Positions 141 to 18,367 of a stretch of 18,505 bases of DNA are shown here, piece after piece. A model generated the notes under the pieces. The model worked only from the letters and a program-made list of their open reading frames with translations, was not told where the DNA came from and ran no database searches. Each line of letters starts with the position of its first letter. Positions within the stretch are counted from its first letter, which is position 1. Origin of the DNA: a virus; the UHGV virus genome UHGV-0309262, one strand, 5' to 3'. A program made the translations under genes and the position numbers.

Positions 141-1276
141 AGTCACTAAATTCCTTACAATACAGCTAGTTAGACAATAAAATCTGTCTCTTTTGCCTGT
201 AAGAAATGCTCTGTTATGTCCCTTGAAAAAGCCGCTGTGGTTGATAGTGGTAATTGGGATGTTAACTCATAGCGGCGTGTAGTTCCAAGCGTCAAACACG
301 TACTGACTCAACTTGAAAGCTATGACGTAGCCACCGTCTCTAAACAATCCCAAAAACTTTTAGTGAAGCGCATTTTAGCCCGATGCCCCCGTTCTGTCGC
401 CGTCGCGAGACGCCGCAGGGGATAAACAGGTTATGGTGGTCACGGTACTTGCAGACCATATGCAAGCTCTGCCAGCGGTTCGGCCTCGCTCCCCTTGGGT
501 ACATGGTCATCCTGATAAGCCTTACTAACTGACATAACCTTGATGAAGTCGCCAGAGGCTCCGCTTGTTGTCTTACCACCAACGGGGCTAATGGTTGGTA
601 TTGCCAGATTACTTAGCAGAGGGGCATAAAGGCACTTCGGAGATCCCGTCCCAAGCGGCTCTCAGGGACTTGTGCGCATGAAGTAATGCGGTTGTACTGG
701 GTATGTGCGCACAACCTTCTACAAGCCGCATTCTACCGTTAGTCAGTAGCTGGCTCCCCGGCTTGAAAAATTGCACGCTTATGGTTGCCCCTCCCTCAAC
801 TCTATAGCTCGCCCGCGCCCCCGTGCACATGTGCGTGCCCGCGCGTCAGGGGTCGCTGAGAAAACCCTAAGATTTTGCTCATCCGAGGCAACCGTTGCAG
901 GCGCGAAATGCTGGACGATTGCTGCTGCCGAATGTGGGTGCGGGCGATTGATTTTCACTGTGTATCTGTACATCCCTCTAAAACGATCTGTGCCGCGTTC
1001 TACGGCGTCCTGTGCTTTCGGTGTGTGATTTAACGTCTGAGTGATTTCGTGATCGTGGCGGTGCCGTGGTGATCTGCTACGTGCGCCGTGGGGCTTTGCT
1101 GCTGTGGTGCGGTGCCAGTCTGTCGCGGCTGCGCCTGTCTCATTCGGGTATACCGCATTGTGATGTGCCGCCGCTGTCGCAATCAAATTTATTTTATACC
1201 CTATTGACCACGGTTTTTAAGTGTGATCTCCTTCATGTCGGGATGTGATACTTCACTGAGATTTGGAGGGGGAATC

Positions 1277-1906
1277 ATGAATAACGTTCGTCTGTATGCC
1301 CGGGCATCCACCGCCGAGCAACACGCCGACCGTGCCGTTCCTGCGCTGGAGGATTTCGCTAATGAGCGTGGTTGGTCTATTGCTGCGCGATACATCGAGA
1401 ACGCCAGCGGTGCGCGGCTGGAGCGTCCTGAACTGATGCGCCTGCTGGGTGAGGCGGAGGCTGGCGACGTTCTACTTGTTGAAAGCATAGACAGGCTAAG
1501 CCGCCTGACACAAAAGGAATGGGCAACACTGAAACAGAGGATTCAGGATAAGGGGCTGGTGATCGTCGCCGTTGACCTGCCAACCTCGTGGCAGTTGCTG
1601 AACGAAACCGCGTCAGAGCTAACCAGCGGCATCCTCAGAGCCGTTAACGCAATGCTGATCGATATTCTCGCTACAATGGCTCGCGTGGACTACGAGACGC
1701 GACTGATGCGCCAGCGGCAGGGCATCGCACGAGCCAAAGCTGAGGGGCTTTACCGTGGGAGCCAGAAGGATGTTGCTGCCCGCGAGACTGTCCGGGAAAT
1801 GCTGGGGCAGGGTGTGAAACCTGAGCGCATCATGAAAGCTGCCGGGATAAGCCGTGCAACGTTCTATCGCATCAAGCGAGAGCTGGCCGCCAGCGTTACG
1901 GAGTGA
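1277..1906 (+). CDS. Serine recombinase (resolvase/invertase family), 209 aa
   Basis: N-terminal VRLYARASTAEQ matches the catalytic-serine motif (Y-x-R-x-S-T-x-x-Q) of small serine recombinases. C-terminal ISRATFYRIKRE resembles a helix-turn-helix. SD GGAGGGGG at 1265..1272 precedes ATG 1277. The ORF track's upstream start at 1223 is in frame but less likely. Confidence 0.75.
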   Translation: MNNVRLYARASTAEQHADRAVPALEDFANERGWSIAARYIENASGARLERPELMRLLGEAEAGDVLLVESIDRLSRLTQKEWATLKQRIQDKGLVIVAVDLPTSWQLLNETASELTSGILRAVNAMLIDILATMARVDYETRLMRQRQGIARAKAEGLYRGSQKDVAARETVREMLGQGVKPERIMKAAGISRATFYRIKRELAASVTE

Positions 1907-2894
1907 TGGCCTACAAGCGAATAAGGTGCTATGACTGGCCGTTACTGGGCTGTGGGTGATGGATTACCTACAGCTTTCGTATTAATTTCAGAGCGTTATG
2001 TTATGCACGATGTCGTAATGCTATGATTTATAATGTATTTTCGTATTACTTGCGGCTCTCGATGTGAAGAGATGGCGGGGCTTTAGCCGTGCCAGACGAT
2101 GAACATCGAGATCAGATTGTGAATGTGATTTATCACTGAAACAATTCCCGGTTGGGGGCGGGGAAGGATTCAACGCTAATTGGTTATGTCGTGGTGCTGG
2201 GTTACATGCTGTTTCTATAGGCTTTTAATGATTTCAGCGTACACGTGTACACTTAACCAATTATCTATGGAGGTTCTTATCTGGTGTCATCTCCTAGATG
2301 GCAAGTGCTGCGCCTCAGTGACGCCGCTTTGCCCTAACGCGGAGACGTTCCGCCGTCTCCACACCTCTCGACGGTGCTGCGCTTCTCGCGTCCGCTAGTC
2401 CGCTTTCATTCGCCTTCGGCTCATTCATCGGCCTGCGTCCGCTGCTGATGCTCGGCCCTCCACGCAACCGTGCTTGCCGGGCAGTCAACGCGGCGGGGAT
2501 GTGTAGTGGAACGGTACTCTGTATCGGTATTACTTCTGTATTCCATCTTATCCTGATATCGGTACGGTATTCTTCATAACATCTTCAATTCATTTCTGTA
2601 GCATTCAATCATCTTCCTTGTTCGTTTCCTTCCAGATCTTAGCCGTTGGTCATTGGTCTTACTGCCAGCTATGGCACACCGTCACGGTCTACTGCTGTAC
2701 TATCTGTTACCTGTTACTACTGCCTTCACTGGTTTCCGGTTGTCAGTCCTACGGTCTGCCATCCGTCATCCGTTCGGCGCTCGCTTGTTTCGGCTGCGCC
2801 GCGCTCGCTCTGCGTATCTAGCGATACTATATCACTATAGACACTTTCATAATTATCTATTGATATCAGTAACTTATATTTTTAATTTTAAAGG

Positions 2895-3146
2895 CTACTA
2901 ATAAGGAGATATAGAGCATTACTTTCCCGCTTTTGACCGACAAAAAATCGAGTTGTTAAGTATTGCCAGCCCAGGCCCAGTAAGGCTTAGCGAGGTGGTG
3001 ATTAAAAATTGACCTAATAAAAGTATCTACTAAGGAGAAAGAATAACTCCCGAAGTGAGACAAACTCTCCGATTTTGAAAGTGACTATTAAGGCAGATAA
3101 AGACACTGACACTGTTGCCGACATGAAAACCTCTATAAGGGCAGAG
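2895..3146. repeat. Array of 4 degenerate direct repeats (consensus about CTAnTAAGGnAG) upstream of the helicase gene; possible iterons or operator sites
   Basis: CTACTAATAAGGAG (2895..2908), TCTACTAAGGAG (3027..3038), GACTATTAAGGCAG (3083..3096) and CTCTATAAGGGCAGAG (3131..3146). None is followed by an ORF, so they are unlikely to be ribosome-binding sites. Confidence 0.4.
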
Positions 3147-3215
3147 AGTCTGCCGCACCTGTACCACCGCCCCAACCTGAGCTAATACCTACCCCTATTT
3201 TCTGGAGATTTCACC

Positions 3216-5060
3216 ATGCCAACAAACCTACGCCGCCTGCTTGCGCAGGCTGCTGACGCCGAACCGCTGAACACTGCGATTGCCGAAGCTCAGCAATTGG
3301 TTGCGGAGAAGATCGTTATACCTCATTCCAAGTTATGCCCTGTCAAACAGCGACCTGTGAAGGCTGCGTTTAACACGGAGTCCGGGCAGTATTTCTACAA
3401 TGCAGATGGTTCCGTTATGTCGTTCCGTGAATGGAAAGAGGCGAACGGAATCGGACGCAAGACACACGCCCGCCGCGCTGATGCTGGGCTACGTCAGATT
3501 ATCCAGCCCGGCGACGCAATTCATTGTCAACGCGCTGAGATTGATCAATGGCTCAACAAGAAGCCTGCCCGGTACGCCGAACCGCTGCCGCCAGATTTTC
3601 CCGGCGTTCGCGTTGACGATGCCGCTCTGAAACCACGTGAGCACGCCATCCCGGAAGCGACCACGGGGCAAAACGCCTTTCTTAAAGCCTGTCGCGAGTT
3701 TCTGATTTGTGATGAGAAGACCATCCGCCGCATCAATCGTGGCATGAGCAAGCTGGAGGCGATGCGCCACGCTGACTTTGACACCCTCGGGGATAGCCCG
3801 GAGTTTCACCAGCTATGGGGCAGTGAGCTGAAATCCACTAAGGACAATTTCAACACGAAGAACCAACACTGTGACGTTGGCGGCGCTGACCTGCCGCCGT
3901 CCATCCCGCCTCTGGTTACAGCGCCGTACAGGTTCCGTGAGCTGGAGCAATGCGACCGCCCGGCATTCGTACCGTTACCGCCGCCAGATGGTCATGACTG
4001 GCGACCCGGTCAACTCGACGTGGCCGCCGCTGTGTTTGCCCGTGACCGCGATATGTTGGCCGTACTGCCGACCGGGTACGGAAAGACGGCTGCATTCACC
4101 TATGCCCTGCATTTTGAGTCTGATGCTGGCGAAGGTATGACCGTTATTGTCGTGCCGACGAACACTATCAAGCAGCAGGTGCTAGAGCAGTTAAGGGAGG
4201 CTGGCGTTCACGCTGTGGCATTTGGCGATAAACTACCGAAGCGGCGTAATGCGCAGCAACTTGCGGGGTTGGCTGCTGGTGCTTTCCGCGTCGCAGTCGT
4301 TTCGCCTGAACATCTGGTGCCGGGTAGTCAGGTGCTTGCCGCGCTGATGGCCGCTGGTGCGGACAGATTTATCATTGACGAGGTGCACACCGTTGATGAA
4401 TGGGAGTTCCGGGACGCTTTCCCTGCAATGAAGCACACCCTGCAAAATGCCTTCCCGGATGCTCAGCGGTGCGCGTTTACTGCGACCCTGCGAAAAGGTG
4501 ATGAGTCTGGCTTGATGAAAGAGCTTGGCTGTCGTGGCGAGTTCCTCACCTACCGCGCCAGTGCTGCCCGTGAAAACATCCAGCTTATTCCTGCTCAGCA
4601 ATGCGTAACTCCGCGCCGGGCTGCCGTTGGTCTGGTCAATGCGCTGCCGGAGAATGAAAAGACATTGGTGATGGTGGACAGCATAAAGATGCTGTATGCG
4701 TATCTCAACGAACTGGGAGACCGTGCCCGGCCTTATCATTCTGACGTTGAGCGACTGAGCCGCGATCAGCGGCACGCCAACGCAGAGTGGTTCTCCAGCA
4801 CGCCCGGCGCTGTTCTGGTGGCGACCAAAGCCTTTGGCCTCGGAGCCGATATTTCTGACGTGCGTAACGTAATTGTCACTTATGTTCCGGAAGACCTGCC
4901 CGATTTGGTGCAAATGGTTGGCCGTGCCGGGCGCGATGGTCAACCTGCCCGTGCTTTCATACTCTGGTCATCGTTGGCGCTGGGGGATGCGCCTGATGAT
5001 TTGGCGGCGTTGTACCAGCCCCACAATGCTAACTGGGGTTACATCTCCCGCTTCCTCTGA
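3216..5060 (+). CDS. RecQ-like SF2 DNA helicase with an ~270 aa N-terminal domain of unknown function (614 aa); probable replication or recombination protein of the element
   Basis: Helicase motifs read from the translation: motif I LPTGYGKT, motif II IIDEVH, motif III FTAT, and motif V/VI VATKAFGLGADISDVRNVI...QMVGRAGRDG, which closely resembles the RecQ signature QExGRAGRDG. SD GGAGA 7 nt upstream of ATG 3216. Confidence 0.8.
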   Translation: MPTNLRRLLAQAADAEPLNTAIAEAQQLVAEKIVIPHSKLCPVKQRPVKAAFNTESGQYFYNADGSVMSFREWKEANGIGRKTHARRADAGLRQIIQPGDAIHCQRAEIDQWLNKKPARYAEPLPPDFPGVRVDDAALKPREHAIPEATTGQNAFLKACREFLICDEKTIRRINRGMSKLEAMRHADFDTLGDSPEFHQLWGSELKSTKDNFNTKNQHCDVGGADLPPSIPPLVTAPYRFRELEQCDRPAFVPLPPPDGHDWRPGQLDVAAAVFARDRDMLAVLPTGYGKTAAFTYALHFESDAGEGMTVIVVPTNTIKQQVLEQLREAGVHAVAFGDKLPKRRNAQQLAGLAAGAFRVAVVSPEHLVPGSQVLAALMAAGADRFIIDEVHTVDEWEFRDAFPAMKHTLQNAFPDAQRCAFTATLRKGDESGLMKELGCRGEFLTYRASAARENIQLIPAQQCVTPRRAAVGLVNALPENEKTLVMVDSIKMLYAYLNELGDRARPYHSDVERLSRDQRHANAEWFSSTPGAVLVATKAFGLGADISDVRNVIVTYVPEDLPDLVQMVGRAGRDGQPARAFILWSSLALGDAPDDLAALYQPHNANWGYISRFL

Positions 5061-5103: not shown

Positions 5104-5535
5104 ATGCCTGATGAAACCGTGCGGCAACGCGCGGGGCGTTCTGACGCCCTGATTAATGCGCAGCTCGCTTACGCCCTGAACGGGTATTCATTTGATGGGT
5201 TGGCCGAACGTCATCGCAAGACCCTTAACCGGGAGGCCATCCTTCGCGAGGTGTCCACGCCGCTGGAGCGATATTGCCTTTTGAATGATTGCGAACCGTG
5301 GGAGTGTCTGGCCGCTGTGCTGAACCGCATGAAAAGGCCGGATGGCTCACGTTGCTGGAAAGCTGTCCGCCTGTCTGAGCGGGTTTTTAATGGTCGAGTG
5401 CATCCAGTGCGCAAGACACCTGATGAAGTTTACGCCGCCATTGCCCGCCGTTTATTTCTGCCGAAGCCCGTGCATCAAGAAGTGATACAGCACATCCGGG
5501 CGCTTGGCCTGTTACCAGTTGGAGATAACCATTAA
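5104..5535 (+). CDS. Hypothetical protein (143 aa), first gene of a coupled operon
   Basis: ORF with SD GGAGAA 6 nt upstream of the ATG. Its stop overlaps the next start (TAATG). No recognisable motif. Confidence 0.55.
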   Translation: MPDETVRQRAGRSDALINAQLAYALNGYSFDGLAERHRKTLNREAILREVSTPLERYCLLNDCEPWECLAAVLNRMKRPDGSRCWKAVRLSERVFNGRVHPVRKTPDEVYAAIARRLFLPKPVHQEVIQHIRALGLLPVGDNH

Positions 5536-5744
5536 TGACCAAAACCGAGTTTGAAGCTGGGACATGGGATATGCGGTGCCTGTTGCTGGAGGCGCTGACC
5601 CGCCGCCTGAAAGAGGACTCCGCTGGAGAATCCCGCATGGCTGCTGCCGAGCTGTCATCCTGCGTGAACTTCCTCAAGCAAAATGCCGCCGATGCGCCGG
5701 ACGCATCTTTCAATAACGTGTTCCCGGAGGATGACAACGAATGA
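5535..5744 (+). CDS. Hypothetical protein (69 aa), acidic C-terminus
   Basis: Start overlaps the preceding stop (TAATG) and the stop overlaps the next start (ATGA), indicating translational coupling. Confidence 0.45.
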   Translation: MTKTEFEAGTWDMRCLLLEALTRRLKEDSAGESRMAAAELSSCVNFLKQNAADAPDASFNNVFPEDDNE

Positions 5745-5932
5745 CGCCGCACCAGTTTAGAGCGTGGTTTAACTCGCTGCCTGAGAAGTACCAGAAGCAG
5801 GCCAAAGCCATGTACGACAACGCCCGGCGCGGCGGTGGTATCCATACCGCATCCAGCCTCGCTTTGATTAAAGACCTTGTAGAAGATTCGATTAACTTTG
5901 ATGGAGAGTTCCAGTATGACAACCACCAGTAA
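5741..5932 (+). CDS. Hypothetical protein (63 aa)
   Basis: ATGA overlap with the upstream gene; in-operon position and consistent coding composition. Confidence 0.45.
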   Translation: MTPHQFRAWFNSLPEKYQKQAKAMYDNARRGGGIHTASSLALIKDLVEDSINFDGEFQYDNHQ

Positions 5933-6494
5933 CGCAACCCTGACCCTGCGCGATATTCAGCTTATCAATAAACTGAGTATTGTTGACCACCTGAACAACG
6001 ATGAAATCTCTTCTCGCACTGGTTTCAGCCCGAGCGACATCGACCGTGTAATCCGTGGCGTCTATGTCGATGACTTGGCCGAACAGTGGAAAGACGATGC
6101 TGATATTACTCTGGCTGAATACAACGCCATCCGCAGCCGCTATAAGCCCGGCAAGCTGCACCGTGATACGGAATTTATGATTGCCCGCGATACGCTGATT
6201 CGCCCTGAAACCGTGCTGGCTATCGCTCATTCCAGATTCCAGAACGCCCACACTCACCCTGCGCCGAAAGCCGTTAAAGTGAAGCCGGAGAAAGCGAAAG
6301 CCATGCGCAAGCTGGTGCCTTCTGATTTGGATGAAATCCACAAGTTAGAGCGCTTTGGCTGGCCTGTCGCTGACATCGCCCAAAAGCTGGACGTTCCGCC
6401 AGAGGTGATCGCTTTCGTTAACCGCTGCTTAAAGAGCCGCTGGCCGTATGGTGACATTCTGGAAAATGTTAATGCGAAATGGGGAGCCGAGTGA
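5916..6494 (+). CDS. Hypothetical protein (~192 aa)
   Basis: ATG at 5916 is preceded by GGAGAG at 5902..5907. The ORF track's earlier TTG start at 5898 lacks an SD. Stop overlaps the next start (TGATG). Confidence 0.5.
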   Translation: MTTTSNATLTLRDIQLINKLSIVDHLNNDEISSRTGFSPSDIDRVIRGVYVDDLAEQWKDDADITLAEYNAIRSRYKPGKLHRDTEFMIARDTLIRPETVLAIAHSRFQNAHTHPAPKAVKVKPEKAKAMRKLVPSDLDEIHKLERFGWPVADIAQKLDVPPEVIAFVNRCLKSRWPYGDILENVNAKWGAE

Positions 6495-6724
6495 TGGAAG
6501 ATAACGACATCATTCACCCTGCAATTGACCCGACTCAATACGTCAACCTTGACGAGATGCGGGAAGGCTACGCCCCTGTTAAGCCGCAGGGGTGGGACAT
6601 CCTGACGCAGAATCTCCGAAGTGAGGCCGCACCCGAACAGCCAGTCACCGCCCGTGGACGCCGCCAGCGTCCGCGTGGCTCCGCTGGCGAGCGCCGTTGG
6701 CTACGCCGTCACGGGCTTATTTAA
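6494..6724 (+). CDS. Hypothetical protein (76 aa), Arg-rich C-terminus
   Basis: ATG 6494 overlaps the upstream stop; GGGGAG SD at 6481..6486. Confidence 0.45.
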   Translation: MEDNDIIHPAIDPTQYVNLDEMREGYAPVKPQGWDILTQNLRSEAAPEQPVTARGRRQRPRGSAGERRWLRRHGLI

Positions 6725-6738
6725 CTGAGGATTATTTC

Positions 6739-6978
6739 ATGAGCACCATCATTTTAATGGAGCCACGCCGCGCGGCTGATTGCGGGCAACAACTGAAATT
6801 CATTGCTGACGCCTTGAATCTTCGTCAAATCGACTTGGCTCGTGTGTACCAGATCGACAGACAAGATCTCGGCAAAGCGTACCACGGACAGAAGATGATT
6901 CCTGCCCGATGCGTACATGCGCACATGCTTTTACTTGAACTGGCGCACCGCCGAGTTACATCACAAGAGGTTGCATAA
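6739..6978 (+). CDS. Hypothetical small protein (79 aa)
   Basis: ATG 6739 is preceded by GAGG at 6727..6730. The track ORF starting at 6697 overlaps the previous gene and is less likely. Confidence 0.4.
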   Translation: MSTIILMEPRRAADCGQQLKFIADALNLRQIDLARVYQIDRQDLGKAYHGQKMIPARCVHAHMLLLELAHRRVTSQEVA

Positions 6979-6980
6979 TT

Positions 6981-7676
6981 ATGGCTGACAATCAAAACCC
7001 TTATCTCGCTGCTGGCGCTGATGCTGCATCGCAGCAATCGCCATACATGGCTGCACCTGTTGGAGCTGACAATGGGGCATCCCGCTTTAGCTCTGCGCCT
7101 GCTGATGCTGATTTCCTCCGTACCCAACCCGTTAACGGTAATGATGGCGGCCAATGGAATAATAGCAATATTGCTAATCAGCAAGACCAGAACGCGGACA
7201 GCGCCGGGGCGCAGGTGGGCGATACTATTCCCCTGATGGATGGAACAGCTATTGAGTACACCGCCGAGCTGCAAGGATTGATGGGGCAGTTTCACCAGTC
7301 TATAGAAAGCCAGCTCGGGCACGGAACAGTTGACGCTATGTTGCAGTACGCGGGCACGCTTGACGCCGGGACGCAATCCACCCTTGAACGTATGGTTATG
7401 TCTGGCGACCCTGCGCAGATGCAGCGGGCTGTTCAGTACCTGCAAGAGAGGATGGCCGCAGGCACTGCGACTGGTTATGTCCCGTCGCAGGGGAACACAT
7501 ATGGTCAGCCCGCCGCGCAACCTGTCGGAATGTCACACGCTGAATTCATCGCGGCGTACGATGCGCTGAATCAATGGGCTGCACAGACTGGCCGGGGTGC
7601 TGGCACGCGAGAATACGACCAGCAGTATCATGCGCTGGTTGCTCAACGCAGCGCCGGGAAGCGTGCCGGGCGCTAA
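6981..7676 (+). CDS. Hypothetical protein with a low-complexity Ala/Gln/Gly/Asn-rich N-terminal half (231 aa)
   Basis: Long ORF with no internal stops, in-operon position. The composition suggests a disordered region; no enzymatic motif recognised. Confidence 0.5.
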   Translation: MADNQNPYLAAGADAASQQSPYMAAPVGADNGASRFSSAPADADFLRTQPVNGNDGGQWNNSNIANQQDQNADSAGAQVGDTIPLMDGTAIEYTAELQGLMGQFHQSIESQLGHGTVDAMLQYAGTLDAGTQSTLERMVMSGDPAQMQRAVQYLQERMAAGTATGYVPSQGNTYGQPAAQPVGMSHAEFIAAYDALNQWAAQTGRGAGTREYDQQYHALVAQRSAGKRAGR

Positions 7677-7690
7677 CTGGAGAATTCCAT

Positions 7691-7954
7691 ATGTACGATG
7701 AGAATAGAATCCGAGTCCTGACCGAGGTAGAGAAACAATCTCACTCGGTCGATAGCATTCTTTCCATTCTGCTTGATAAATACCCCAGCACCAGCCCCGA
7801 CCATCTGACGCGTGTCGCTGAATGCCTCGTTACTTTTGGCTGGGGTGTTGCTGAATACGATGCGTACCGCGCCGGGATGCTTGGCGAAGAGAAGCGCCAG
7901 ACGATGGTCGCTTGGTTTACTGAGCGGAATTCCGCGCAACGCTGGGCTGCCTGA
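7691..7954 (+). CDS. Hypothetical protein (87 aa)
   Basis: ATG 7691 with GGAG SD 8 nt upstream, just after the upstream stop at 7674..7676. The ORF track's 7574 start lies inside the preceding gene. Confidence 0.45.
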   Translation: MYDENRIRVLTEVEKQSHSVDSILSILLDKYPSTSPDHLTRVAECLVTFGWGVAEYDAYRAGMLGEEKRQTMVAWFTERNSAQRWAA

Positions 7955-8224
7955 TTCCGATGCCAGCGCCTGACGGTGCATTGTGGGCTGCAAGTCCGAC
8001 TGGACACCTGACCCTGCGAATTAACTACTTACTGTCCACTAATCGCTGAGAGCCGCGCCAATTCTGGCCTAGCAAAGCCAGTTTCGGGTACTCGGAGACT
8101 TTTCTATCAATCTGCTTTAACCCTGATTTTCCATCTCTCTGAATCCTGCCACGGCGGGAGGATTACGCACGCCTGCACCATGACGATGGCGCGGGCTTCA
8201 TCAACCTACGTAGGAGTTTTGTTT

Positions 8225-9220
8225 ATGGCTGATACTTCGTACAGTCCCGATCTGTTTCGCCCACATTATGGCGGGGTGGAATCCGACAATGATATTCACA
8301 TCGAGGCTTATGACCGGGATGTCCAGACCCGTTTAGAGTCCAAATCCGTATTTCTGGCCGAGGGGCTGTCTACATACAGGCCGCTGAAAGGCAGCAACCA
8401 ATACCGCATTGATCGCCTGAGTGGTGATCTTGAGGTGAAGGGCAGAACCGCAGGGCAATCGCTGGAGCCTACCGCCGTTAAGTCGGACAAGCTGATCATC
8501 TCTGTGGATACTCTGAGCTATATCCGCATCCCGATTGATTATCAAGATGACTGGACTGCACCCACCTTTCGCGCCGAGCTGAGCCGCAACATGGGGACAG
8601 CCCATGCGAAGTTTTACGACGAAGCGCACACCATCCAGTTAATCAAAGCGACTGACTTTGTACCGCCGCCGACACTGCAACCAACGTTTAACCCGCTTAC
8701 GGGCAATGTTGTCTCGCTCGACCTGACAGCGGGGAGCGAAGAGGACGCCGCAAAAGAGCTGGTTCACGCTATCAAAGCTGCTGTTGATCGGTTCCTGACT
8801 GAGAAAGATATTCCGGTGGTGGAGTTGTGTCTTCTCATCGACCCGGCTTGGTTCAGCATCCTGATGGAACACAAGAAGCTGATGAACGTCCGTTATAGCC
8901 GGGATAGTGGCAACGATTACGCGTGGCGGCGCATCGGTTACGTGGCCGGGGTGCGAGTCATTGAGCTGAACAGTTACCCGCAGGAAGCCATTACCGGGCA
9001 TGAGCTGGGCGCTGATTATGACGTTACCGCAGAGGAAGCGCTGACGAGGGCGACGCTGTTTAAACCCTCCTCGGTACTGTTGACGGTCGAAGCACAGAGC
9101 GTCATCAATCGCCAGTGGGATGATGAACGCGAAATGACGGTGGTGATGGACTCATATCGCCTGTTCAACGTTGGGCTGCGTCGTCCTGATTGCGTTATCA
9201 ATTTCCGACAATCTGCGTAA
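8225..9220 (+). CDS. Hypothetical protein (331 aa); possibly structural, but this is a weak guess
   Basis: ATG 8225 preceded by AGGAG at 8210..8214, following a 270-bp intergenic gap. Size and position after a low-complexity protein loosely resemble a scaffold/capsid arrangement, but no motif confirms it. Confidence 0.5.
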   Translation: MADTSYSPDLFRPHYGGVESDNDIHIEAYDRDVQTRLESKSVFLAEGLSTYRPLKGSNQYRIDRLSGDLEVKGRTAGQSLEPTAVKSDKLIISVDTLSYIRIPIDYQDDWTAPTFRAELSRNMGTAHAKFYDEAHTIQLIKATDFVPPPTLQPTFNPLTGNVVSLDLTAGSEEDAAKELVHAIKAAVDRFLTEKDIPVVELCLLIDPAWFSILMEHKKLMNVRYSRDSGNDYAWRRIGYVAGVRVIELNSYPQEAITGHELGADYDVTAEEALTRATLFKPSSVLLTVEAQSVINRQWDDEREMTVVMDSYRLFNVGLRRPDCVINFRQSA

Positions 9221-9236
9221 CTGGAGGGGCTGGGTC

Positions 9237-9746
9237 ATGGTTAATGATACTTACGCCCCTGAGCTGTTGCGATCCCTTTTCCTGTACGACCCGGTGACAG
9301 GTCGCCTGCACCATAAAGCTAACCGACGCCGGGTTAAGGCTGGCTCCTGTGCTGACTCCACCCGTCGAGCTGATGGCTATCGTCAAGTTGCCCTGCGACT
9401 GGATGGCAAGCAGTACCAGCTAAAAGCCCACCGCGTGGCGTGGATTCTTGCGCATGGCGCTATTCCTGATGGTCTGCAAGTTGACCACATCAACGGTATC
9501 CGTGACGACAACCGCCTATGCAATCTGCGCTTGGTTACGCAGCGGGAAAACGACCAGAACCGACGCAGGGCAAAGGGTTGTAGCTGGAATAAGGGCTGTA
9601 GCAAATGGGAGGCTTACATTCGCGTTAATGGTGTACGCCATCACCTTGGCTTATTCACTAGCGAAGCGGCGGCGCGTGCTGCTTACCTGAAAGCAAAAGC
9701 CAGATACCATCCCTCGACCCCAGTCGATTTGTTAAATGCTGCTTAA
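9237..9746 (+). CDS. HNH endonuclease with AP2-like DNA-binding domain (169 aa)
   Basis: AHRVAWILAHGAIPDGLQVDHINGIRDDNRLCNLRLVTQRENDQNR matches the phage-type HNH_3 signature (H...DH.NG...DNR..NL......N). WEAYIRVNGVRHHLGLFTSEAAARAAY matches an AP2 domain. SD GGAGGGG 6 nt upstream. Confidence 0.7.
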   Translation: MVNDTYAPELLRSLFLYDPVTGRLHHKANRRRVKAGSCADSTRRADGYRQVALRLDGKQYQLKAHRVAWILAHGAIPDGLQVDHINGIRDDNRLCNLRLVTQRENDQNRRRAKGCSWNKGCSKWEAYIRVNGVRHHLGLFTSEAAARAAYLKAKARYHPSTPVDLLNAA

Positions 9747-9764
9747 ACTTTGGAGACGTAGTTT

Positions 9765-10199
9765 ATGGGGACTAAAAAGCAGGGTAGAGCAATCCGAGTG
9801 CTGCCAGATGATGACCCACGTCGCCAGCGGTACGCCGAACTGTTGGCGCAGGCTGGCCGGATGACTGTCCCCCGGTTGCATCCGGGAGACGCTAACAGCG
9901 TAATGAGCCAGCTCGCGACGATGCTTGGCGCACCAGTCCCGATAGTCGGCACTATGACGGAGCACGCCGCCGCATGGCGGACCTGCCTGCTGGAGCAAGG
10001 ACTTGGCGATCTGCTGGCTGGCTTGAGTAAGCAGGTACTGACCGTCTTCTTTCTGCTTTGCTGGAGAGACAGCGCCTTGCGGCAGGTTGGCAAGGAGCGG
10101 GAACGGCTTACGGCGGCCAGCGAAGGCTTGACCATTGAACAGTATCGGGCAATGCGCTCGGCTTACAGAGAGAATAAAGAAGATGATGACCACGATTAA
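9765..10199 (+). CDS. Hypothetical protein (144 aa)
   Basis: ORF with GGAGACG SD upstream of ATG 9765; in-operon position. Confidence 0.45.
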   Translation: MGTKKQGRAIRVLPDDDPRRQRYAELLAQAGRMTVPRLHPGDANSVMSQLATMLGAPVPIVGTMTEHAAAWRTCLLEQGLGDLLAGLSKQVLTVFFLLCWRDSALRQVGKERERLTAASEGLTIEQYRAMRSAYRENKEDDDHD

Positions 10200-10482
10200 A
10201 TTAAGGTGGCGGTACATCGATCCGCCGCCAATGGCTGGCGCACTCGCTGACCTGAAAGTGTGGGTAATGGATACCGGAGAGCCTGAGCTGGAAGCTGAAT
10301 TTCGTAAGCTGCTGGGGTTAATGCGCCGCAACGGTATCAGTGACGAACGCGTTAATGCGATGGCTGATGAGCTTTATGTTCTGGTACGGCAACGGCAGCG
10401 CGAAGAATACGAAGCCTGCAAGCGGGCTGCATCTGACAATGGAGACTTTGAATCATGGTTACACGGACAGACCAGCTACTAA
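10183..10482 (+). CDS. Hypothetical protein (~99 aa)
   Basis: ATG 10183 overlaps the end of the upstream gene. The 5' part of the track ORF (from 10135) overlaps that gene and is rejected. Confidence 0.4.
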   Translation: MMTTIKLRWRYIDPPPMAGALADLKVWVMDTGEPELEAEFRKLLGLMRRNGISDERVNAMADELYVLVRQRQREEYEACKRAASDNGDFESWLHGQTSY

Positions 10483-10883
10483 GAAAAGCTATGCGGGGCT
10501 ATCTGGAACACCTCGGCAACATGCCGTTGGCGGAACGGATTACAAACACTGCTGCATTCGAAGATGTGTATCGCTTCCTGTTGAATGGTTCCGGGCGTCT
10601 GGAGCTGCGTCGTGCTGATGTGGCCGCTGTCCGTTTCTTCTTGTGGAATTATCAATACCGCCGCTGTGCGGTGACAGGTAAGCCGCTGCGCCTTACGTCT
10701 GCCGTATTAGATCACTGCCACCGAACCGGGCGCGTGCGTGCTGTGGTGCATCGCTCTGCTAACGCTGCTGAGGGTGGCTACCATGCTGGGCGTTTGTGTG
10801 GGCTGTCGCCTAGCAGCATGAACGCGATGCTGGCGAGCTACCGCCAACAAAACCAAGGGCTGGGCGTTGTTTATCCGGGGTGA
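10455..10883 (+). CDS. Endonuclease VII-like (Holliday-junction/branched-DNA nuclease family) protein (142 aa)
   Basis: C-terminal CAVTGKPL...LDHCHRTGRVRAVVHRSANAAEG matches the Endonuclease_7 pattern (C..C...DH.H.TG.VR.....N...G). GGAGA SD upstream of ATG 10455. Confidence 0.6.
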   Translation: MVTRTDQLLRKAMRGYLEHLGNMPLAERITNTAAFEDVYRFLLNGSGRLELRRADVAAVRFFLWNYQYRRCAVTGKPLRLTSAVLDHCHRTGRVRAVVHRSANAAEGGYHAGRLCGLSPSSMNAMLASYRQQNQGLGVVYPG

Positions 10884-10938: not shown

Positions 10939-12015
10939 TCAGTGGGTTACGCAGTTTTCCATAAACGCATTAAGGAATTGATCTGTAATTCCTTGTGGTT
11001 TGCGTCGTTCACAAAGAGAATACAATTCTTCGACTGCTGAGTACGGGAAGAATTTTGTGTCCAGCTCTCGGAATTGCGGCATATTCGCAAACTCAATGAC
11101 TTTAGCACGATATTCATCGGGGGCTACGATTGTCCATCTGATATCTTGAAGCCGTGGGGCATAGTCACAAAAATTCTTCATCCGGGTTAACCCGCTTTTA
11201 ATCCCAGTGCTGTGCTCAATTTCCATCACGGCGGGCATTAATTTTCCATTTCTAAACCAAATGCAATCTATTAGTTTTGCACCGTCAATGGCCTCGCTGT
11301 ACGAGCTTAATACCTTTTCATTTGAGAGGCTATCAATTACCCCATCCATTTGAGCAATGACTTTTCCGTTATATTTAAGTCCGCGATCATTAGCTGCCAC
11401 CCATGTTCTGTAGCCTAAGTGGTGGCCGATTTTTACTAATGCAATCTGGATTTGTGCATGTCTTCTTGATTCTTCAATCGACATGCCCTCAACTGGGCGG
11501 ATCGTTTCCAGATCAACGCTTTGATATACAACCTCTGTTTTCATCTCTGATATTACAATATTAGCTTTGTATTCAGAGAGCTTACCGTTTTCGTGTGGCG
11601 AATTGGGTAAGTACACAAGATGCTTGTGGCCTTTCTTTACCGTCTGTTTAGTGTTAATAACTTCTAAACGGTCGAGTTTACACCAATAAAATTGCGGTGT
11701 GTGTGCAAGTAAACTCTCAATAACGGAACGGGAGTTATAGCTTGCACCAAGCACTCTATCTAAATTGATAGGTGCATCCTCTTGAATTGCATTAGCCAAA
11801 CGCCAAAGCATCTGGCTAGAGATGCTGTCTATTTTTGCATCTTTAAGCGTCTCGCCTTTGGTCGGATTAAAACGCTTAAAGCGTATCGGGCCTTGTGGTG
11901 ACTTAATCGAGTCGACGACAATCTTCCCAGCATTACTTTCATTCACATAATCAAACTGCCTGTTTTTGGGCAGGTTGGCTATCGCATTCACAAGATTCAT
12001 TGCTGTCAAATTCAT
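10939..12015 (-). CDS. Putative type II restriction endonuclease (358 aa), cognate to the adjacent methyltransferase
   Basis: Immediately downstream of, and overlapping by 65 nt, a C5-cytosine methyltransferase gene on the same strand. Similar low GC. AGGGA SD upstream of ATG 12015. The function is inferred from position only; no catalytic motif recognised. Confidence 0.5.
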   Translation of the reverse strand: MNLTAMNLVNAIANLPKNRQFDYVNESNAGKIVVDSIKSPQGPIRFKRFNPTKGETLKDAKIDSISSQMLWRLANAIQEDAPINLDRVLGASYNSRSVIESLLAHTPQFYWCKLDRLEVINTKQTVKKGHKHLVYLPNSPHENGKLSEYKANIVISEMKTEVVYQSVDLETIRPVEGMSIEESRRHAQIQIALVKIGHHLGYRTWVAANDRGLKYNGKVIAQMDGVIDSLSNEKVLSSYSEAIDGAKLIDCIWFRNGKLMPAVMEIEHSTGIKSGLTRMKNFCDYAPRLQDIRWTIVAPDEYRAKVIEFANMPQFRELDTKFFPYSAVEELYSLCERRKPQGITDQFLNAFMENCVTH

Positions 12016-13090
12016 CTTTTATCCCTAAATGCTCTAATATAGATTTTGCTATTCCGAAGGCTGCAAGGTAAGGAACACCATTACCAACAGTTTTGAACAT
12101 ATTTGAAAGAGTCATATAAGATGGCAATTCAAACTCTTTCGGCAAAGACTGAATGGCAAGCGCTTCTGCAACTGTTATTCTGCGTGGCTTATATGGATGT
12201 AAATGAACCTCGTTATTACCATAAGCAGCAGTCGGCGAATATCTCCAGCGGTGGAGGCGCTTGTAAGATTTTTTACTATCGTCACCTTCTGCAACAGCCT
12301 TGAAGCGTACTAATCCAGCTCTGGCCGTAAATACATGCTTCGCGTTCACATGTTCAGAAACATTATTTTTCTTAAACCAGTAATCAACAGTTAATTCTTG
12401 TGGGAGTGACTCTGGCATTGCAAGTGTAGAGTCCTCGGAAAATTCATTTGTTGTTGGCCAACTGTAACTAAAGGCATTACGATCCGGGTATAATCTGCCA
12501 CTCCAATTAAATGACTTGGCTAGTCTCTTACTTTGGAAACCCAATAGAATAATGCGCTCTCGGTCTTGCGGAGCACCGTATTCAATCGAATTAATCAACC
12601 TTTCATGAAGAGTGTAACCCACATCCATCAACTGCTCTTTGAGATGCTCAAAAAACTCGCGATGCTTGAGTGTGCGATATAACCCCTTGACGTTCTCGAA
12701 CAAGAAGAAGTCAGGTTTCATCTCTACAATTATATCAATGTAGCTTTGGGACAGCTTACCATTCTCCCCATCGCGCCCTTTGTTTTTGCCCGCAACGGAG
12801 AAGTCGGGGCAAGGTGGGCCACCAATGAAGCCAATCAGTCTTTTTTCTTTCTTGAGTGTTTTAATAGCGTCTTTCAACTGCTTGTGATCAACTTCCTCTA
12901 TGCTCTTTTCGGCATAGCCAAAACGAGGGATAGGCTTGTTCATTACCGCACGCGAGTGCTTGTAAGCATCCATAAACGGCGGGTGAAATTCATTCACAAA
13001 AACCACTTCGTAGCCTGAGTTTTCAAAGCCAAGGTCTAAAAAGCCTGAGCCGGAAAAGAAAGAGAAGATGGCGGGTTTAAGTGTGGACAT
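11951..13090 (-). CDS. DNA (cytosine-5)-methyltransferase (379 aa)
   Basis: C5-MTase motifs in the expected order: motif I FSGSGF (F-x-G-x-G), motif IV GGPPCP (the catalytic Pro-Cys), motif VI ENV (FLFENVKGL), motif VIII QDRER, motif X GNGVP near the C-terminus. Confidence 0.8.
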   Translation of the reverse strand: MSTLKPAIFSFFSGSGFLDLGFENSGYEVVFVNEFHPPFMDAYKHSRAVMNKPIPRFGYAEKSIEEVDHKQLKDAIKTLKKEKRLIGFIGGPPCPDFSVAGKNKGRDGENGKLSQSYIDIIVEMKPDFFLFENVKGLYRTLKHREFFEHLKEQLMDVGYTLHERLINSIEYGAPQDRERIILLGFQSKRLAKSFNWSGRLYPDRNAFSYSWPTTNEFSEDSTLAMPESLPQELTVDYWFKKNNVSEHVNAKHVFTARAGLVRFKAVAEGDDSKKSYKRLHRWRYSPTAAYGNNEVHLHPYKPRRITVAEALAIQSLPKEFELPSYMTLSNMFKTVGNGVPYLAAFGIAKSILEHLGIKDEFDSNESCECDSQPAQKQAV

Positions 13091-13225: not shown

Positions 13226-14434
13226 TTAAAGGGCTATTTGATGGTTCACAAACTCCACGTAGCGTGATAGTTCGGCTGGGGCTGCTGCGTTTTTCGAATA
13301 TGTTTTGAAGCTCTCCGTGTTACCTCGCTCATGGCCGACGAGCAGGGCAATGCGATCCTCTGGCACTTGAGCACGGTCGAGCTGTTGCACAAACGCATGG
13401 CGGAGTGAATGAAACACTTTTCTCTCTGCGGCAGGCTCGCCAAGAGCTTTACGCTTTGCTCGCGTGAATTGTTGCGTATGCCACGTTGAGCGCTTCCCAT
13501 CGGCCCGGTCTGTAATAGATGCGTGATAGAACAGAAAACCGCTATGTGTGGTTTTGAGCAATGATTTCATGAGGGGGATTAACTTGCTGTGTACAGGGAC
13601 AATTCGCGCTGCGCTCTTAGTTTTCCCCTCGGTGATCTCAAAGCACAATATCCCCTCGATAGTTTTAATGCTGCTTTCACGTAGCGTACATATCTCATTG
13701 ATCCGCATACCGCTGTATGCACCAATAGCCGTTACCGCCTTCATCTCATCATCAAGCAAAGCATAGACCTTTGCCAGCTCACCCGGTGCGAAGACTTCAT
13801 AGCTGACCTTGCTGCTTTTTGCTTCGAGCGCATGACCGCGCCAAGGATTGTCTTGTGGCGCATCGTGATAGCGATTGCGTGCCAGATCCCATATCTGCGC
13901 CAGTGCGCTTATATAGTTTTGAATAGTTTGGGGCGCTCGCTCAGTTTTGAGCTTATCTAACCAGCCTGTAACTATGGTTCGGTTAATATCCCGCAACTGA
14001 ACATCTTTCTTTTTCAGGTGGGTTAACAGCACCTCTACGGCTTTGTTGGTCTTAGATAGCGTTGTTAGCTTTCTCTTCTCGCTGTATTGGAGAAGATACA
14101 GATCGCGCATTTTAAGTAGGGAGGGGCAAGCCTGAACCGATGCACCAAATGATGCGGGGGCTTCCTTGGCATATACACTGACACGGCGTAGCTCATCAAT
14201 GATTTGATCGACGGATGAGCCGCCTTGCGGTTTTAGCAGATTCCGTAAGCGAGTCCATTCCAGAGCAATAGCATCGCGAAACAAACGCGCTTGCCGTATG
14301 TCGCGTGTCCCTGTGCTTTTCATAAAGTAGCGCTTCCCTTGGAACAGGTGACGCATATAGCTGGGGATAGCTATCCGCACGAGGTAATTACCGCAGGGAT
14401 CTAAAACTAGATAACGATCTCTCTTGAAACTCAT
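13226..14434 (-). CDS. Tyrosine recombinase / phage-type integrase of the inserted element (402 aa)
   Basis: C-terminal catalytic signature: R in YSGMRINEI, HSLRHAF (H-x-x-R box), LLVGH, and the nucleophile Y in TESFKTYSKN. Lies next to the right direct repeat. Confidence 0.8.
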   Translation of the reverse strand: MSFKRDRYLVLDPCGNYLVRIAIPSYMRHLFQGKRYFMKSTGTRDIRQARLFRDAIALEWTRLRNLLKPQGGSSVDQIIDELRRVSVYAKEAPASFGASVQACPSLLKMRDLYLLQYSEKRKLTTLSKTNKAVEVLLTHLKKKDVQLRDINRTIVTGWLDKLKTERAPQTIQNYISALAQIWDLARNRYHDAPQDNPWRGHALEAKSSKVSYEVFAPGELAKVYALLDDEMKAVTAIGAYSGMRINEICTLRESSIKTIEGILCFEITEGKTKSAARIVPVHSKLIPLMKSLLKTTHSGFLFYHASITDRADGKRSTWHTQQFTRAKRKALGEPAAERKVFHSLRHAFVQQLDRAQVPEDRIALLVGHERGNTESFKTYSKNAAAPAELSRYVEFVNHQIAL

Positions 14435-14567: not shown

Positions 14568-14598
14568 CGTGCCGGTTCGAGTCCGGCCTTCGGCACCA
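14568..14598. repeat. attR core: displaced original 3' end of leuX
   Basis: Identical 31-bp copy of tRNA positions 110..140, located ~165 bp upstream of the P4-like integrase where an intact leuX would normally sit. Confidence 0.8.
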
Positions 14599-14710: not shown

Positions 14711-14764
14711 TTGGGGGCATAATTGGGGGCATCTTAACTTCGATTAGAAATGTGCCCCCAAATG
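14711..14764. promoter_or_regulatory. Direct and inverted repeats of a TTGGGGGC motif upstream of and overlapping the intB start; putative integrase operator or arm-type site
   Basis: TTGGGGGCAT (14711..14720) and TTGGGGGCAT (14723..14732) are direct repeats. Their reverse complement GCCCCCAA sits at 14753..14760, overlapping the start codon. Confidence 0.3.
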
Positions 14765-16027
14765 AAGCTCAACGCCAGACAGGTCGAGACCGCAAAGCCA
14801 AAAGACAAAACCTATAAAATGGCCGATGGCGGCGGTTTGTATCTCGAGGTTTCGGCCAAGGGTTCTAAATACTGGCGCATGAAATACAGACGCCCCTCAG
14901 ACAAAAAAGAGGATCGCCTCGCTTTTGGTGTTTGGCCTACTGTGACGCTTGCTCAGGCAAGAGCAAAGCGCGACGAAGCTAAAAAGCTGTTAGTGCAGGG
15001 CATTGACCCAAAAGCCGAACTGAAAGAAGCTCAGGCCGAGAATTCGGGGGCATATACTTTCGAAACCATTGGCCGTGAATGGCATGCCAGTAACAAGCGC
15101 TGGAGTGAAGACCATCGATCACGCGTTCTTCGCTATCTTGAGCTTTATATCTTCCCTCATATCGGTTCGTCCGACATTCGCCAGCTCAAAACTAGCCACC
15201 TGTTAGCCCCGATTAAAAAAGTTGATGCCAGTGGAAAGCATGACGTCGCTCAGCGCTTGCAACAGCGCGTTACGGCCATTATGCGTTATGCCGTACAGAA
15301 CGATTACATCGACTCAAATCCAGCCAGTGATATGGCCGGTGCGCTATCGACAACCAAAGCGCGGCACTATCCTGCTTTGCCCTCTAGCCGCTTCCCAGAG
15401 TTTCTTGCTCGTCTTGCTGCATATCGTGGCCGTGTAATGACACGGATCGCGGTCGAGCTTTCCTTACTCACTTTTGTACGTTCCAGTGAGTTACGTTTCG
15501 CGCGTTGGGATGAATTCGACTTCGATAAATCTCTTTGGCGTATACCGGCAAAACGAGAAGAAATTAAAGGCGTGCGTTACTCGTATCGTGGCATGAAAAT
15601 GAAAGAGGAGCATATTGTTCCTCTCAGTCGGCAGGCGATGGTTTTATTAGAGCAGCTCAAGCAAATTAGTGGTGATAAAGAGCTGCTGTTCCCGGGAGAT
15701 CATGACGCAACTAAGGTTATGAGTGAAAACACGGTAAACAGTGCATTGCGTGCAATGGGATATGACACGAAAACTGAGGTCTGTGGGCATGGGTTCAGAA
15801 CGATGGCGCGTGGTGCTATGGGTGAGTCAGGGTTGTGGAGTGATGACGCGATAGAGCGACAGCTGAGCCATTCAGAACGTAATAACGTGCGTGCAGCTTA
15901 TATTCATACTTCTGAGCATTTGGATGAGCGACGTTTAATGATTCAGTGGTGGGCTGATTATCTTGATGAGTTAAATAATAATTACATTACTCCATTTGAT
16001 TTCGCTAAAATACAAAAAAATTATTAA
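14762..16027 (+). CDS. intB: P4-family tyrosine integrase (421 aa)
   Basis: N-terminus MKLNARQVETAKPKDKTYKMADGGGLYLEV is the hallmark P4-like integrase arm-binding signature (AKPK..Y...DGGGLYL). Typical position just downstream of the leuX 3' end. The in-frame ATG at 14750 is an alternative start. Confidence 0.85.
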   Translation: MKLNARQVETAKPKDKTYKMADGGGLYLEVSAKGSKYWRMKYRRPSDKKEDRLAFGVWPTVTLAQARAKRDEAKKLLVQGIDPKAELKEAQAENSGAYTFETIGREWHASNKRWSEDHRSRVLRYLELYIFPHIGSSDIRQLKTSHLLAPIKKVDASGKHDVAQRLQQRVTAIMRYAVQNDYIDSNPASDMAGALSTTKARHYPALPSSRFPEFLARLAAYRGRVMTRIAVELSLLTFVRSSELRFARWDEFDFDKSLWRIPAKREEIKGVRYSYRGMKMKEEHIVPLSRQAMVLLEQLKQISGDKELLFPGDHDATKVMSENTVNSALRAMGYDTKTEVCGHGFRTMARGAMGESGLWSDDAIERQLSHSERNNVRAAYIHTSEHLDERRLMIQWWADYLDELNNNYITPFDFAKIQKNY

Positions 16028-16038
16028 TATTTACATGG

Positions 16039-16062
16039 AAGGGCTGAAAGAACAGCCCTTCT
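16039..16062. terminator. Bidirectional rho-independent-type terminator between intB and the convergent AT-rich locus
   Basis: Perfect 9-bp stem GAAGGGCTG / CAGCCCTTC with loop AAAGAA, flanked by T-rich sequence on both strands. Confidence 0.5.
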
Positions 16063-16070
16063 AATATATT

Positions 16071-18345: not shown

Positions 18346-18367
18346 TTGTTTCAAATAATCATCACCG

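Follow-up and report, generated by a model that had tools for sequence, protein, structure and literature searches.

The virus genome UHGV-0309262, analysed here over its full 18,505 nucleotides (the window), carries an island of 14,458 bp, measured from repeat to repeat, that begins in the 3′ end of a tRNA-Leu gene and ends in an exact copy of that end. At 5104-10883 the island contains a compact array of 13 co-directional open reading frames (ORFs), g1 to g13, on the plus strand. A preliminary description of this DNA had seen here a coupled operon of twelve genes flanked by nucleases; the shared direction stands, and the count rises to 13. Overlapping stop and start codons of the TAATG/ATGA type are indeed present, at g1/g2 and g2/g3, but the genes fall into two tightly coupled blocks (5104-7954 and 8225-10883) instead of one, with junction gaps of -28 to +18 nt and a single exception of 270 nt (7955-8224) in front of g9. 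The two nucleases are the tenth gene (HNH) and the thirteenth and last (Endonuclease VII, Endo VII) and so do not flank the array. A GGAG Shine-Dalgarno sequence precedes almost every start, and a scan for sigma-70 promoters and terminators gave nothing exceeding shuffled expectation. Orthologues of all 13 ORFs are found in at least nine related islands, and across them the median pairwise ratio of nonsynonymous to synonymous substitution (dN/dS) is 0.09-0.38, which reflects purifying selection; therefore, all 13 are real genes. The island's boundaries, its non-coding site of phage type, the array and the integrase are listed below, where clade 1 is the lineage that includes the window and clade 2 a second, divergent lineage of islands.

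56-140, plus strand: tRNA-Leu(CAA), whose 3′ 31 nt (110-140) form the left attachment site, attL (ARAGORN, Rfam, direct repeat, blastn).
757-843, plus strand: putative mimic of the Bonnellvirus genome-end (concatemer-junction) site (blast, J8-65 terminal repeats).
5104-5535, plus strand: g1, 143 aa, island-specific, kept in clades 1 and 2, dN/dS 0.10.
5535-5744, plus strand: g2, 69 aa, shortened homologue of the T7-type small terminase, gp18 family (BLASTP, family profile, PF11123).
5741-5932, plus strand: g3, 63 aa, no matches, kept in both clades.
5916-6494, plus strand: g4, 192 aa, three predicted helix-turn-helix-like units (AlphaFold2 model, pLDDT 78.9, three 3-helix units).
6494-6724, plus strand: g5, 76 aa (81 aa with the alternative start at 6479), basic C-terminus, dN/dS 0.27.
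6739-6978, plus strand: g6, 79 aa, no family match, dN/dS 0.09.
6981-7676, plus strand: g7, 231 aa, predicted shortened capsid scaffolding protein (hhalign, family profile, tblastn).
7691-7954, plus strand: g8, 87 aa, in a variable slot between the scaffold and capsid genes (island comparison).
8225-9220, plus strand: g9, 331 aa, predicted full-length HK97-fold major capsid protein of the Autographiviridae type (phrog_267, identity to Bonnellvirus capsids).
9237-9746, plus strand: g10, 169 aa, HNH_3 homing-type endonuclease with an AP2-like C-terminal region (Pfam, PHROG, PADLOC).
9765-10199, plus strand: g11, 144 aa, predicted all-helical, island-specific (structure prediction, homologue searches).
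10183-10482, plus strand: g12, 99 aa, weak resemblance to the small terminase, kept in clade 2.
10455-10883, plus strand: g13, 142 aa, Endo VII-type nuclease with an N-terminal extension (PF02945 at 3e-6, phrog_423 at 1e-15).
13226-14434, minus strand: tyrosine integrase of the island (Pfam Phage_integrase and DUF6538, phrog_1).
14568-14598, plus strand: the right attachment site, attR, an exact 31-nt repeat of the tRNA-Leu 3′ end (repeat search, blastn).

Most other products of the array had no Pfam, NCBIfam or PADLOC match, in agreement with the preliminary description, which had recognised few motifs; that did not hold for the 331-aa g9, which matches phrog_267, the "major head protein" family, at E=1.7e-69 (PHROG). 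By homology it belongs to the Autographiviridae-type major capsid proteins. It matches solved podophage capsid proteins over its full length (E=9e-81), is 55-57% identical over 98% of its length to the capsids of Bonnellvirus phages (Lidtsur, forsur, J8-65 and others), and has a dN/dS of 0.095. The phages with the closest capsids are virulent coliphages of ~42 kb, in the genus Bonnellvirus of the family Autographiviridae.

The 231-aa g7 carries in its N-terminal part the low-complexity, Q/A/N-rich region that had been picked out from the letters alone, and profile comparisons identify it as a shortened scaffolding protein. Over its last ~100 aa it can be aligned to the very C-terminus of scaffolds from Autographiviridae (hhalign probability 94%, E=1.4e-7), its family hidden Markov model (HMM) matches 58 phage scaffold ORFs located directly upstream of capsid genes, and tblastn gave 177 weak matches, of which those listed fall on scaffolding genes. 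Its 231 aa compare with 411 aa in Bonnellvirus and ~280 aa in Drulisvirus. The 331-aa and 231-aa proteins, both as first described, had been proposed for a test of capsid or scaffold folds, and by homology one is indeed a capsid protein and the other a scaffold.

A third virion-related product, g2, is by its alignments a shortened homologue of the T7-type small terminase (TerS). BLASTP aligned it with the TerS of Lidtsur at 48% identity over 42 aa (E=6e-6), its family HMM gave E=2.5e-7 when run on the Lidtsur proteome, and PF11123 was the sole Pfam match, seen in eight of nine island orthologues and in all of them under the gathering score. The alignment places an internal deletion of ~25 aa in g2 relative to the phage protein. 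A tblastn search of all phages with g2 returned nothing, and the homology is visible only in pairwise and profile comparisons. The same TerS segment is weakly resembled by g12 (HMM against Lidtsur TerS, E=0.009). When the island was searched with the whole Lidtsur proteome (tblastn, HMM), counterparts were found only for the capsid, TerS, the scaffold and Endo VII.

Besides the capsid gene, the window has a single stretch resembling phage DNA, the ~87 nt at 757-843, outside the array and upstream of the recombinase gene. They match 13 records, all of them Bonnellvirus-group phages and at one place in each, with 73-82% identity over ~66-88 nt and E values down to 6e-9 (against 2.3 Gb). In these phages the element lies 40-50 nt past the last late gene (endolysin), at the start of a non-coding stretch of ~1.5 kb ahead of the first early gene. 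The type phage J8-65 was deposited with identical direct terminal repeats of 259 bp; its left genome end begins TCGACCCGAAGG…, and at the right-hand repeat copy the sequence reads …CCCGGCTTGAAAATTGACTATTTGTGCGTGGGCCTCCC up to the boundary and TCGACCCG… beyond it. The core shared with the island consists of ~38 nt of unique right-end sequence and the first 45-50 nt of the terminal repeat and, given the J8-65 sequences at both repeats, it therefore spans exactly the left boundary of the terminal repeat, which is where the terminase must act in a T7-type concatemer. The equivalent cut in the window is predicted between 795 and 796, that is, between …CCCCTCCC and TCAAC…. In all clade-1 islands a 44-nt core is kept at 95-100% identity, also where the DNA on either side of it differs, and the core of 757-843 is the sole non-coding similarity to clade 2, whose proteins are 36-59% identical. 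At the level of sequence, the site at 757-843 and the TerS homologue g2 are packaging determinants matched to a helper phage.

The island is a discrete integrative element, with 31-nt att repeats and a tyrosine integrase adjoining attR. Its order is recombinase, helicase, g1-g7, variable slot, capsid, HNH, g11, g12, Endo VII, cargo slot and integrase, and the same architecture is present in 59 of 5,426 complete E. coli genomes, the copy examined (in ARS-C101) sitting at leuX. Islands are also found in genomes of Enterobacter spp., Kluyvera, Kosakonia and Trabulsiella, and there are records of g4 and g11 orthologues from Klebsiella, Cronobacter, Citrobacter and Phytobacter. Clade 2 (L104, from E. 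hormaechei) has the helicase, g1-g7, the capsid, g12, g13 and the integrase at the identity given above, and of a third lineage (P0115) the capsid alone is known. In a neighbour-joining tree the island capsids are monophyletic, on long branches, and sister to those of Bonnellvirus and Waewaevirus, suggesting one old capture of the gene followed by diversification within islands. Measured from att to att, eight islands span 14,458-15,379 bp with a cargo slot of 0 to 2.4 kb, which is 34-37% of the genomes of the phages (41.0-42.5 kb), and the genera that host phages and islands overlap (Escherichia, Enterobacter, Kosakonia, Cronobacter). Short IMG/VR contigs with related capsids were considered as further satellites and rejected, as they are phage fragments with portal and tail-tube genes. 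A survey of the E. cloacae mobilome assigned 0.8% of its 'prophages' to Autographiviridae, and islands of this family could account for such calls (PMC13612085).

Because the island has capsid, scaffold and TerS genes of its own together with a copy of a helper-matched genome end, we think that it is probably a satellite that parasitises the virulent, T7-like podophages of the Bonnellvirus group (Autographiviridae), with the array as its conserved core, and that it would represent a seemingly undescribed family of satellites with their own capsid. One of the two options raised in the preliminary description was that a phage satellite has its packaging or hijacking module here; the homologues in the array bear it out, and the strongest evidence lies outside the array, in the site at 757-843, the att repeats and the integrase. 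The products of the array are not, as a set, housekeeping proteins of a known prophage family in conserved synteny. With somewhat less assurance, we lean towards these islands being the first satellites of T7-like phages, in which the island's own capsid and short scaffold would build small heads on a stolen portal and core, and in which the truncated TerS and the boundary mimic would capture the helper's large terminase. Such an element would be, in short, a half-head parasite of a strictly lytic phage. The gene content, the cis site matched to the helper, the boundaries, the conservation and the size are all read directly from the DNA.

On the mechanism in detail, with small capsids and a redirected terminase, we regard the case as evenly poised, and we infer induction, small-capsid assembly and transfer as follows. 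On helper infection the island would excise and be amplified, through its integrase and perhaps with the help of the serine recombinase. Replication or recombination intermediates would be turned into packageable concatemers by the RecQ-like helicase together with the Endo VII-type resolvase, and on the helper portal the satellite capsid and short scaffold would assemble into shells with too little room for the 42-kb genome of the helper, probably T=4 and not T=7, by analogy with P4 and with the Staphylococcus aureus pathogenicity islands (SaPIs). P4 and SaPI genomes amount to ~0.35 of the helper genome and travel in T=4 capsids. g2, possibly with g12 and the three-unit g4, would steer the helper's large terminase to the genome-end mimic, the helper would supply the tails, and as a result the island and its defence cargo would be transferred and the yield of the helper reduced. 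For the redirection step there is a precedent in work by Chung and Hinkle from 1990, in which plasmids with a T7 origin and a T7 concatemer junction were reportedly packaged by T7. A variable slot for defence cargo is typical of satellites. The eight products to which we could give no function would then include new anti-T7 takeover or sensing factors, for example, one for surviving the host-DNA degradation and host shut-off caused by a phage that kills in <20 minutes.

Several observations weigh against this interpretation. Only the left boundary of the terminal repeat is mimicked, as no similarity was found to the right boundary or to the rest of the repeat; other phage non-coding DNA also had no similarity in the island. 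The termini of J8-65 are the annotation of its depositors, and their paper is silent on the method of determination. The public contigs show no permuted or terminally redundant form of the island, and its excision, amplification, packaging and transfer are inferred. Island-length Logan contigs were tried as excised or packaged forms and dropped, since their ends are the att repeat and are thus assembly breaks. No iterons or origin were found in the 1.3-kb non-coding region at 1907-3215, the only T7-class promoter-like sequence misfits Bonnellvirus and is at chance level on its own, and a repeated-motif search of Lidtsur defined no Bonnellvirus-type promoter that could be found in the island. 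A RecQ-like helicase is atypical as the replication initiator of a satellite, the large internal core of T7-like heads might not fit a T=4 shell, and 8 of the 13 products (g1, g3, g4 in part, g5, g6, g8, g11 and g12) are without a function. In full-text literature searches no satellite turned up that has an Autographiviridae capsid or a Bonnellvirus helper, which is not proof of absence.

The alternative that survives best, though we consider it unlikely, is a defence island that is not mobile. Its capsid, scaffold and TerS would be dominant-negative decoys that poison the assembly and packaging of the helper, its genome-end copy would titrate or misdirect the terminase, its nucleases would attack phage DNA, and the bacterial population would be protected without transduction of the island itself. 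Nucleases and a slot for defence cargo are what such an island would carry, truncation of the scaffold and small terminase would suit a decoy, the long and divergent capsid branch fits a changed function, and the public contigs have so far given no direct evidence of packaging. However, the tight size range, close to one third of the helper genome although the cargo varies, is a prediction of a packaging constraint and not of pure defence, and the capsid has remained full length under strong purifying selection (the dN/dS given above). The islands are spread over many genera and have their own integrase, so a route of transfer is needed, and all known satellites both interfere and transfer, which means that the two roles are not exclusive. 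The conflict system that the preliminary description had raised as its other option is possible as a secondary role, since satellites interfere with their helpers, but the recognisable defence genes are in the cargo slot at 10939-13090, outside the operon.

A decayed remnant of a temperate T7-like prophage, with the array as its leftover morphogenesis genes, is much less probable still. Autographiviridae homologues are indeed found for 5 of the 13 products (capsid, scaffold, small terminase, HNH and Endo VII), and temperate or integrase-bearing T7-like phages exist (e.g. LUZ100), but at least two sampled lineages, with proteins 36-59% identical, have the same gene set in the same order and at the same size, dN/dS is 0.09-0.38, there are no pseudogenes, and decay would be idiosyncratic. 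Eight genes and the RecQ-like helicase have no phage counterpart, and no fragments are left of portal, tail, RNA polymerase, DNA polymerase or large terminase genes. Among the island ORFs we found neither a homologue nor an ORF of suitable size for a portal, large terminase, tail, lysis or RNA/DNA polymerase protein, and in the Lidtsur proteome searches RNA polymerase, DNA polymerase, portal, tail tube and large terminase had no counterpart, all of which an Autographiviridae prophage would have. The genome and viral collections gave no intact integrated relative, and the other capsid matches are all in phages of ~41-45 kb or in fragments, with portal and tail-tube genes. Least probable of all is a helper-independent mini-virus or gene-transfer-agent-like element that builds its own particles, for although the eight products without a function could include novel structural proteins, the unknowns are of 63-192 aa, too short for the ~520 aa of a portal or the ~580 aa of a large terminase ATPase, and none is similar to either. 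That the genome-end site is a copy from one phage group also implies use of the terminase of that phage.

As a satellite, the island can be set beside several known systems. In the same host family, Enterobacteriaceae, are found phage-inducible chromosomal islands of the capsid-forming type (cf-PICIs), which are likewise integrative elements of ~15 kb with their own capsid, small terminase and HNH genes and a helper that gives part of the virion. In the literature cf-PICIs are described with a full HK97-type head and packaging module (capsid, protease, portal, connectors) and take their tails from temperate siphophages, whereas this island has T7-type homologues of no more than the capsid, the scaffold and the small terminase, and the phages to which it is matched are virulent podophages; Pfam and PHROGs detected among its ORFs no portal, no prohead protease and no head-tail connectors. 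P4 (helper P2) and the SaPIs and other PICIs (helper 80alpha and others) are alike in a genome of about one third of the helper's, in redirection through a packaging site or small terminase, in an integrase with att sites at a tRNA or other fixed site, and in a hotspot for defence cargo. They differ in remodelling the helper capsid with Sid or CpmAB in place of a capsid protein of their own, in a primase-helicase replication module, and in their temperate helpers. Searches of the island with PHROG, Pfam and NCBIfam detected no psu, sid, delta, alpha, Pri-Rep or AlpA, and these gene searches do not make it P4-like, a P2-type cos site not having been searched for; the P4-type integrase at 14750-16027 belongs to a neighbouring island. 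Nor is it a classical PICI or SaPI, with a RecQ-like SF2 helicase, no primase or AlpA match, and a capsid gene.

[quoted passage not shown] PLE also resembles our island in having its own scaffold, TcaP, for small capsids, a domesticated homing endonuclease and a manipulation of packaging; PLE and PICMI differ in their Vibrio hosts, myovirus helpers and use of the helper coat protein, and no homologous genes were detected. The Streptomyces satellites MiniFlayer and MulchMansion have their own encapsidation genes, including a capsid protein, and the helper of MiniFlayer is lytic, but their hosts are Actinobacteria, their helpers siphoviruses and their genes unrelated, and MiniFlayer is non-integrative (PMC10690885). 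Our island would work most like the cf-PICIs and the MiniFlayer-type satellites, which have their own capsid genes. The T7 concatemer-junction plasmids are alike in that a replicon foreign to the phage reportedly becomes packageable by a T7-type terminase once it carries the boundary sequences of the phage concatemer junction and terminal repeat; they are laboratory constructs, reportedly packaged as multimers in full-size T7 heads, whereas the island is natural and has its own capsid, scaffold and small terminase.

Both nucleases of the array had been recognised beforehand as HNH/AP2 and Endo VII-like. The HNH protein, g10, matches HNH_3 (1e-19, Pfam), phrog_99 (8e-58) and HEase (PADLOC), and in phages its homologues are neighbours of scaffold, capsid and tail-tube genes or lie between them. 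In clade 1 the HNH gene follows the capsid gene, and in clade 2 it lies ahead of the helicase. The positions that we compared are 9237-9746 in the window, 3727-4218 in L104, 2395-2655 in L016 and ~2536 in L062. The differing position between lineages and the capsid-adjacent phage homologues are typical of a mobile homing endonuclease and lend no support to the earlier rationale that the HNH protein assists a terminase. g10 is most likely a selfish or co-opted homing endonuclease and not a packaging factor, and it could cut the helper near the helper's capsid gene. The product of g13 matches 61 phage Endo VII ORFs (E~1e-10) and is a presumed junction resolvase.

The three predicted helix-turn-helix units of g4 found only generic helix-turn-helix proteins in Foldseek (E>=0.3) and no specific structural neighbour. 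Weak matches to HTH_38 and phrog_517 were obtained, and a remote profile search returned only island orthologues and generic proteins with helix-turn-helix repeats; from its model, g4 is a probable DNA-binding regulator or site-recognition factor. g6 is possibly a small Cro/Xre-like helix-turn-helix protein, as judged by eye. No family or PDB match was found for g1, g11 was not detected in clade 2 and its structure prediction was of low confidence with no fold match, and no relatives of g1, g3, g5, g6, g8 or g11 were detected beyond this island family. Nothing of use came from sequence searches of the PDB with g1, g7, g13, the g2 profile and the N-terminus of the helicase. The slot that holds g8 (7677-8224 in the window; 17518-18500 in L001, 9427-10001 in L009 and 9339-10001 in L104) carries one of three unrelated small genes, which encode the 87-aa g8, a 137-200-aa protein beginning 'MSTCNFHAVE…' or a 115-160-aa protein beginning 'MTLLTPENVAAARA…', the last being present in clade 2 too. 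None of the three belongs to a known family.

The remaining features of the island are as follows.

141-604, no strand: attL-proximal arm of the island, 97-99% identical across genera.
655-685, minus strand: inverted copy of the 31-nt motif found upstream of the capsid gene (repeat search; recurs in other islands).
1277-1906, plus strand: small serine recombinase of the resolvase/invertase type (Pfam Resolvase at 4e-25, HTH_7).
1907-3215, no strand: 1.3-kb non-coding region of patchy conservation, a candidate origin or regulatory region.
3216-5060, plus strand: RecQ-family SF2 helicase with an unassigned N-terminal domain of 255 aa (Pfam DEAD, Helicase_C).
8026-8056, plus strand: conserved 31-nt motif upstream of the capsid gene, TACTTACTGTCCACTAATCGCTGAGAGCCGC (repeat search).
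10939-13090, minus strand: cargo slot with a Type II restriction-modification (RM) pair (PADLOC REase_II at 8.5e-123, Pfam DNA_methylase at 5e-53).

The ~460 nt at attL are far more conserved than the coding genes, and the island that is without this arm, L006, has an integrase only 39% identical. The arm behaves as the attP arm of the integrase module and co-varies with the integrase type. The 31-nt motif TACTTACTGTCCACTAATCGCTGAGAGCCGC, whose inverted copy lies ~70 nt to the left of the genome-end mimic, is present in one or two copies at the same places in other islands (L005-L008, ~9310-9854) and was not found in phage Lidtsur; it is a candidate promoter, regulatory or binding site. At 2818-2843, with the helicase gene ~380 nt downstream, there is a sequence resembling T7-class promoters, CGATACTATATCACTATAGACAC; the DNA after it is AT-rich up to ~3100, a layout that resembles a T7 primary origin. 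The sequence is kept in the six islands that share the surrounding region and is absent from the others and from Lidtsur. The T7-class promoter match within it, TCACTATAG at 2832, was dropped as evidence, as this 9-mer is at chance level and absent from Lidtsur. Searches with Rfam gave the tRNA only.

The type of serine recombinase varies between islands (28-98% identity). The helicase is below cutoff for TIGR00614 (recQ_fam) and reaches 116 bits with NCBIfam DpdF, for which the cutoff is 550 bits; it scores higher on RecQ models than on NCBIfam DpdF, with the RecQ scores also under their cutoffs. The PADLOC DpdF model PDLC02858 matches it over the full model length (residues 112-614, 1045 bits), and the output of defence finders may mislabel these islands for this reason. 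No Dpd matches were found in the neighbouring genes, as a 7-deazaguanine (Dpd) system of DpdF with DpdA-K would have, and the helicase presumably has a role in replication or recombination of the island.

In the window the cargo slot holds a restriction endonuclease (10939-12015) and a C5-methyltransferase (11951-13090) with a low GC content of ~42%; among the islands the slot is either empty or filled by one of two distinct RM systems, by AbiTii, by a ThsB-like TIR gene together with one for a membrane protein, or by a single unknown gene. Proteins of the RM cassette are 98-99% identical in islands of Trabulsiella (L011), of a metagenome-assembled genome of an uncultured Enterobacter (L009) and of a metagenome contig (L025), and E. 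coli ARS-C101 carries this cassette too, but outside its island, past the integrase (L001, 24338-26489). Found both inside and outside islands, the cassette therefore moves between contexts. A second island stands in tandem past attR (14750-18505, GC 33-39%), with its P4-type integrase on the plus strand and a Hachiman HamB helicase at 16276-18381 on the minus strand (PADLOC, 1042 bits), whose HamA partner would fall beyond the end of the window.

T7-like phages, the textbook case of fast and strictly lytic phages, have wide use in therapy and biotechnology, and this work, if the satellite interpretation is true, would extend satellite biology to the Autographiviridae. The system is tractable, as Bonnellvirus phages that infect E. 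coli K-12, such as J8-65 and Lidtsur, have been isolated and sequenced, and it could address how capsid size is determined and how the terminase recognises its substrate, the pac requirements of T7-like phages being poorly defined. There is also a consequence for annotation, because the islands are labelled as "capsid protein plus hypothetical proteins" and may be counted as Autographiviridae prophages, and their helicase matches the PADLOC DpdF model. In phage therapy against Enterobacter and E. coli, the islands could lower the yield of the phage and spread during treatment. More broadly, they would give defence systems (RM, AbiTii, TIR) a route of horizontal spread driven by lytic phages.

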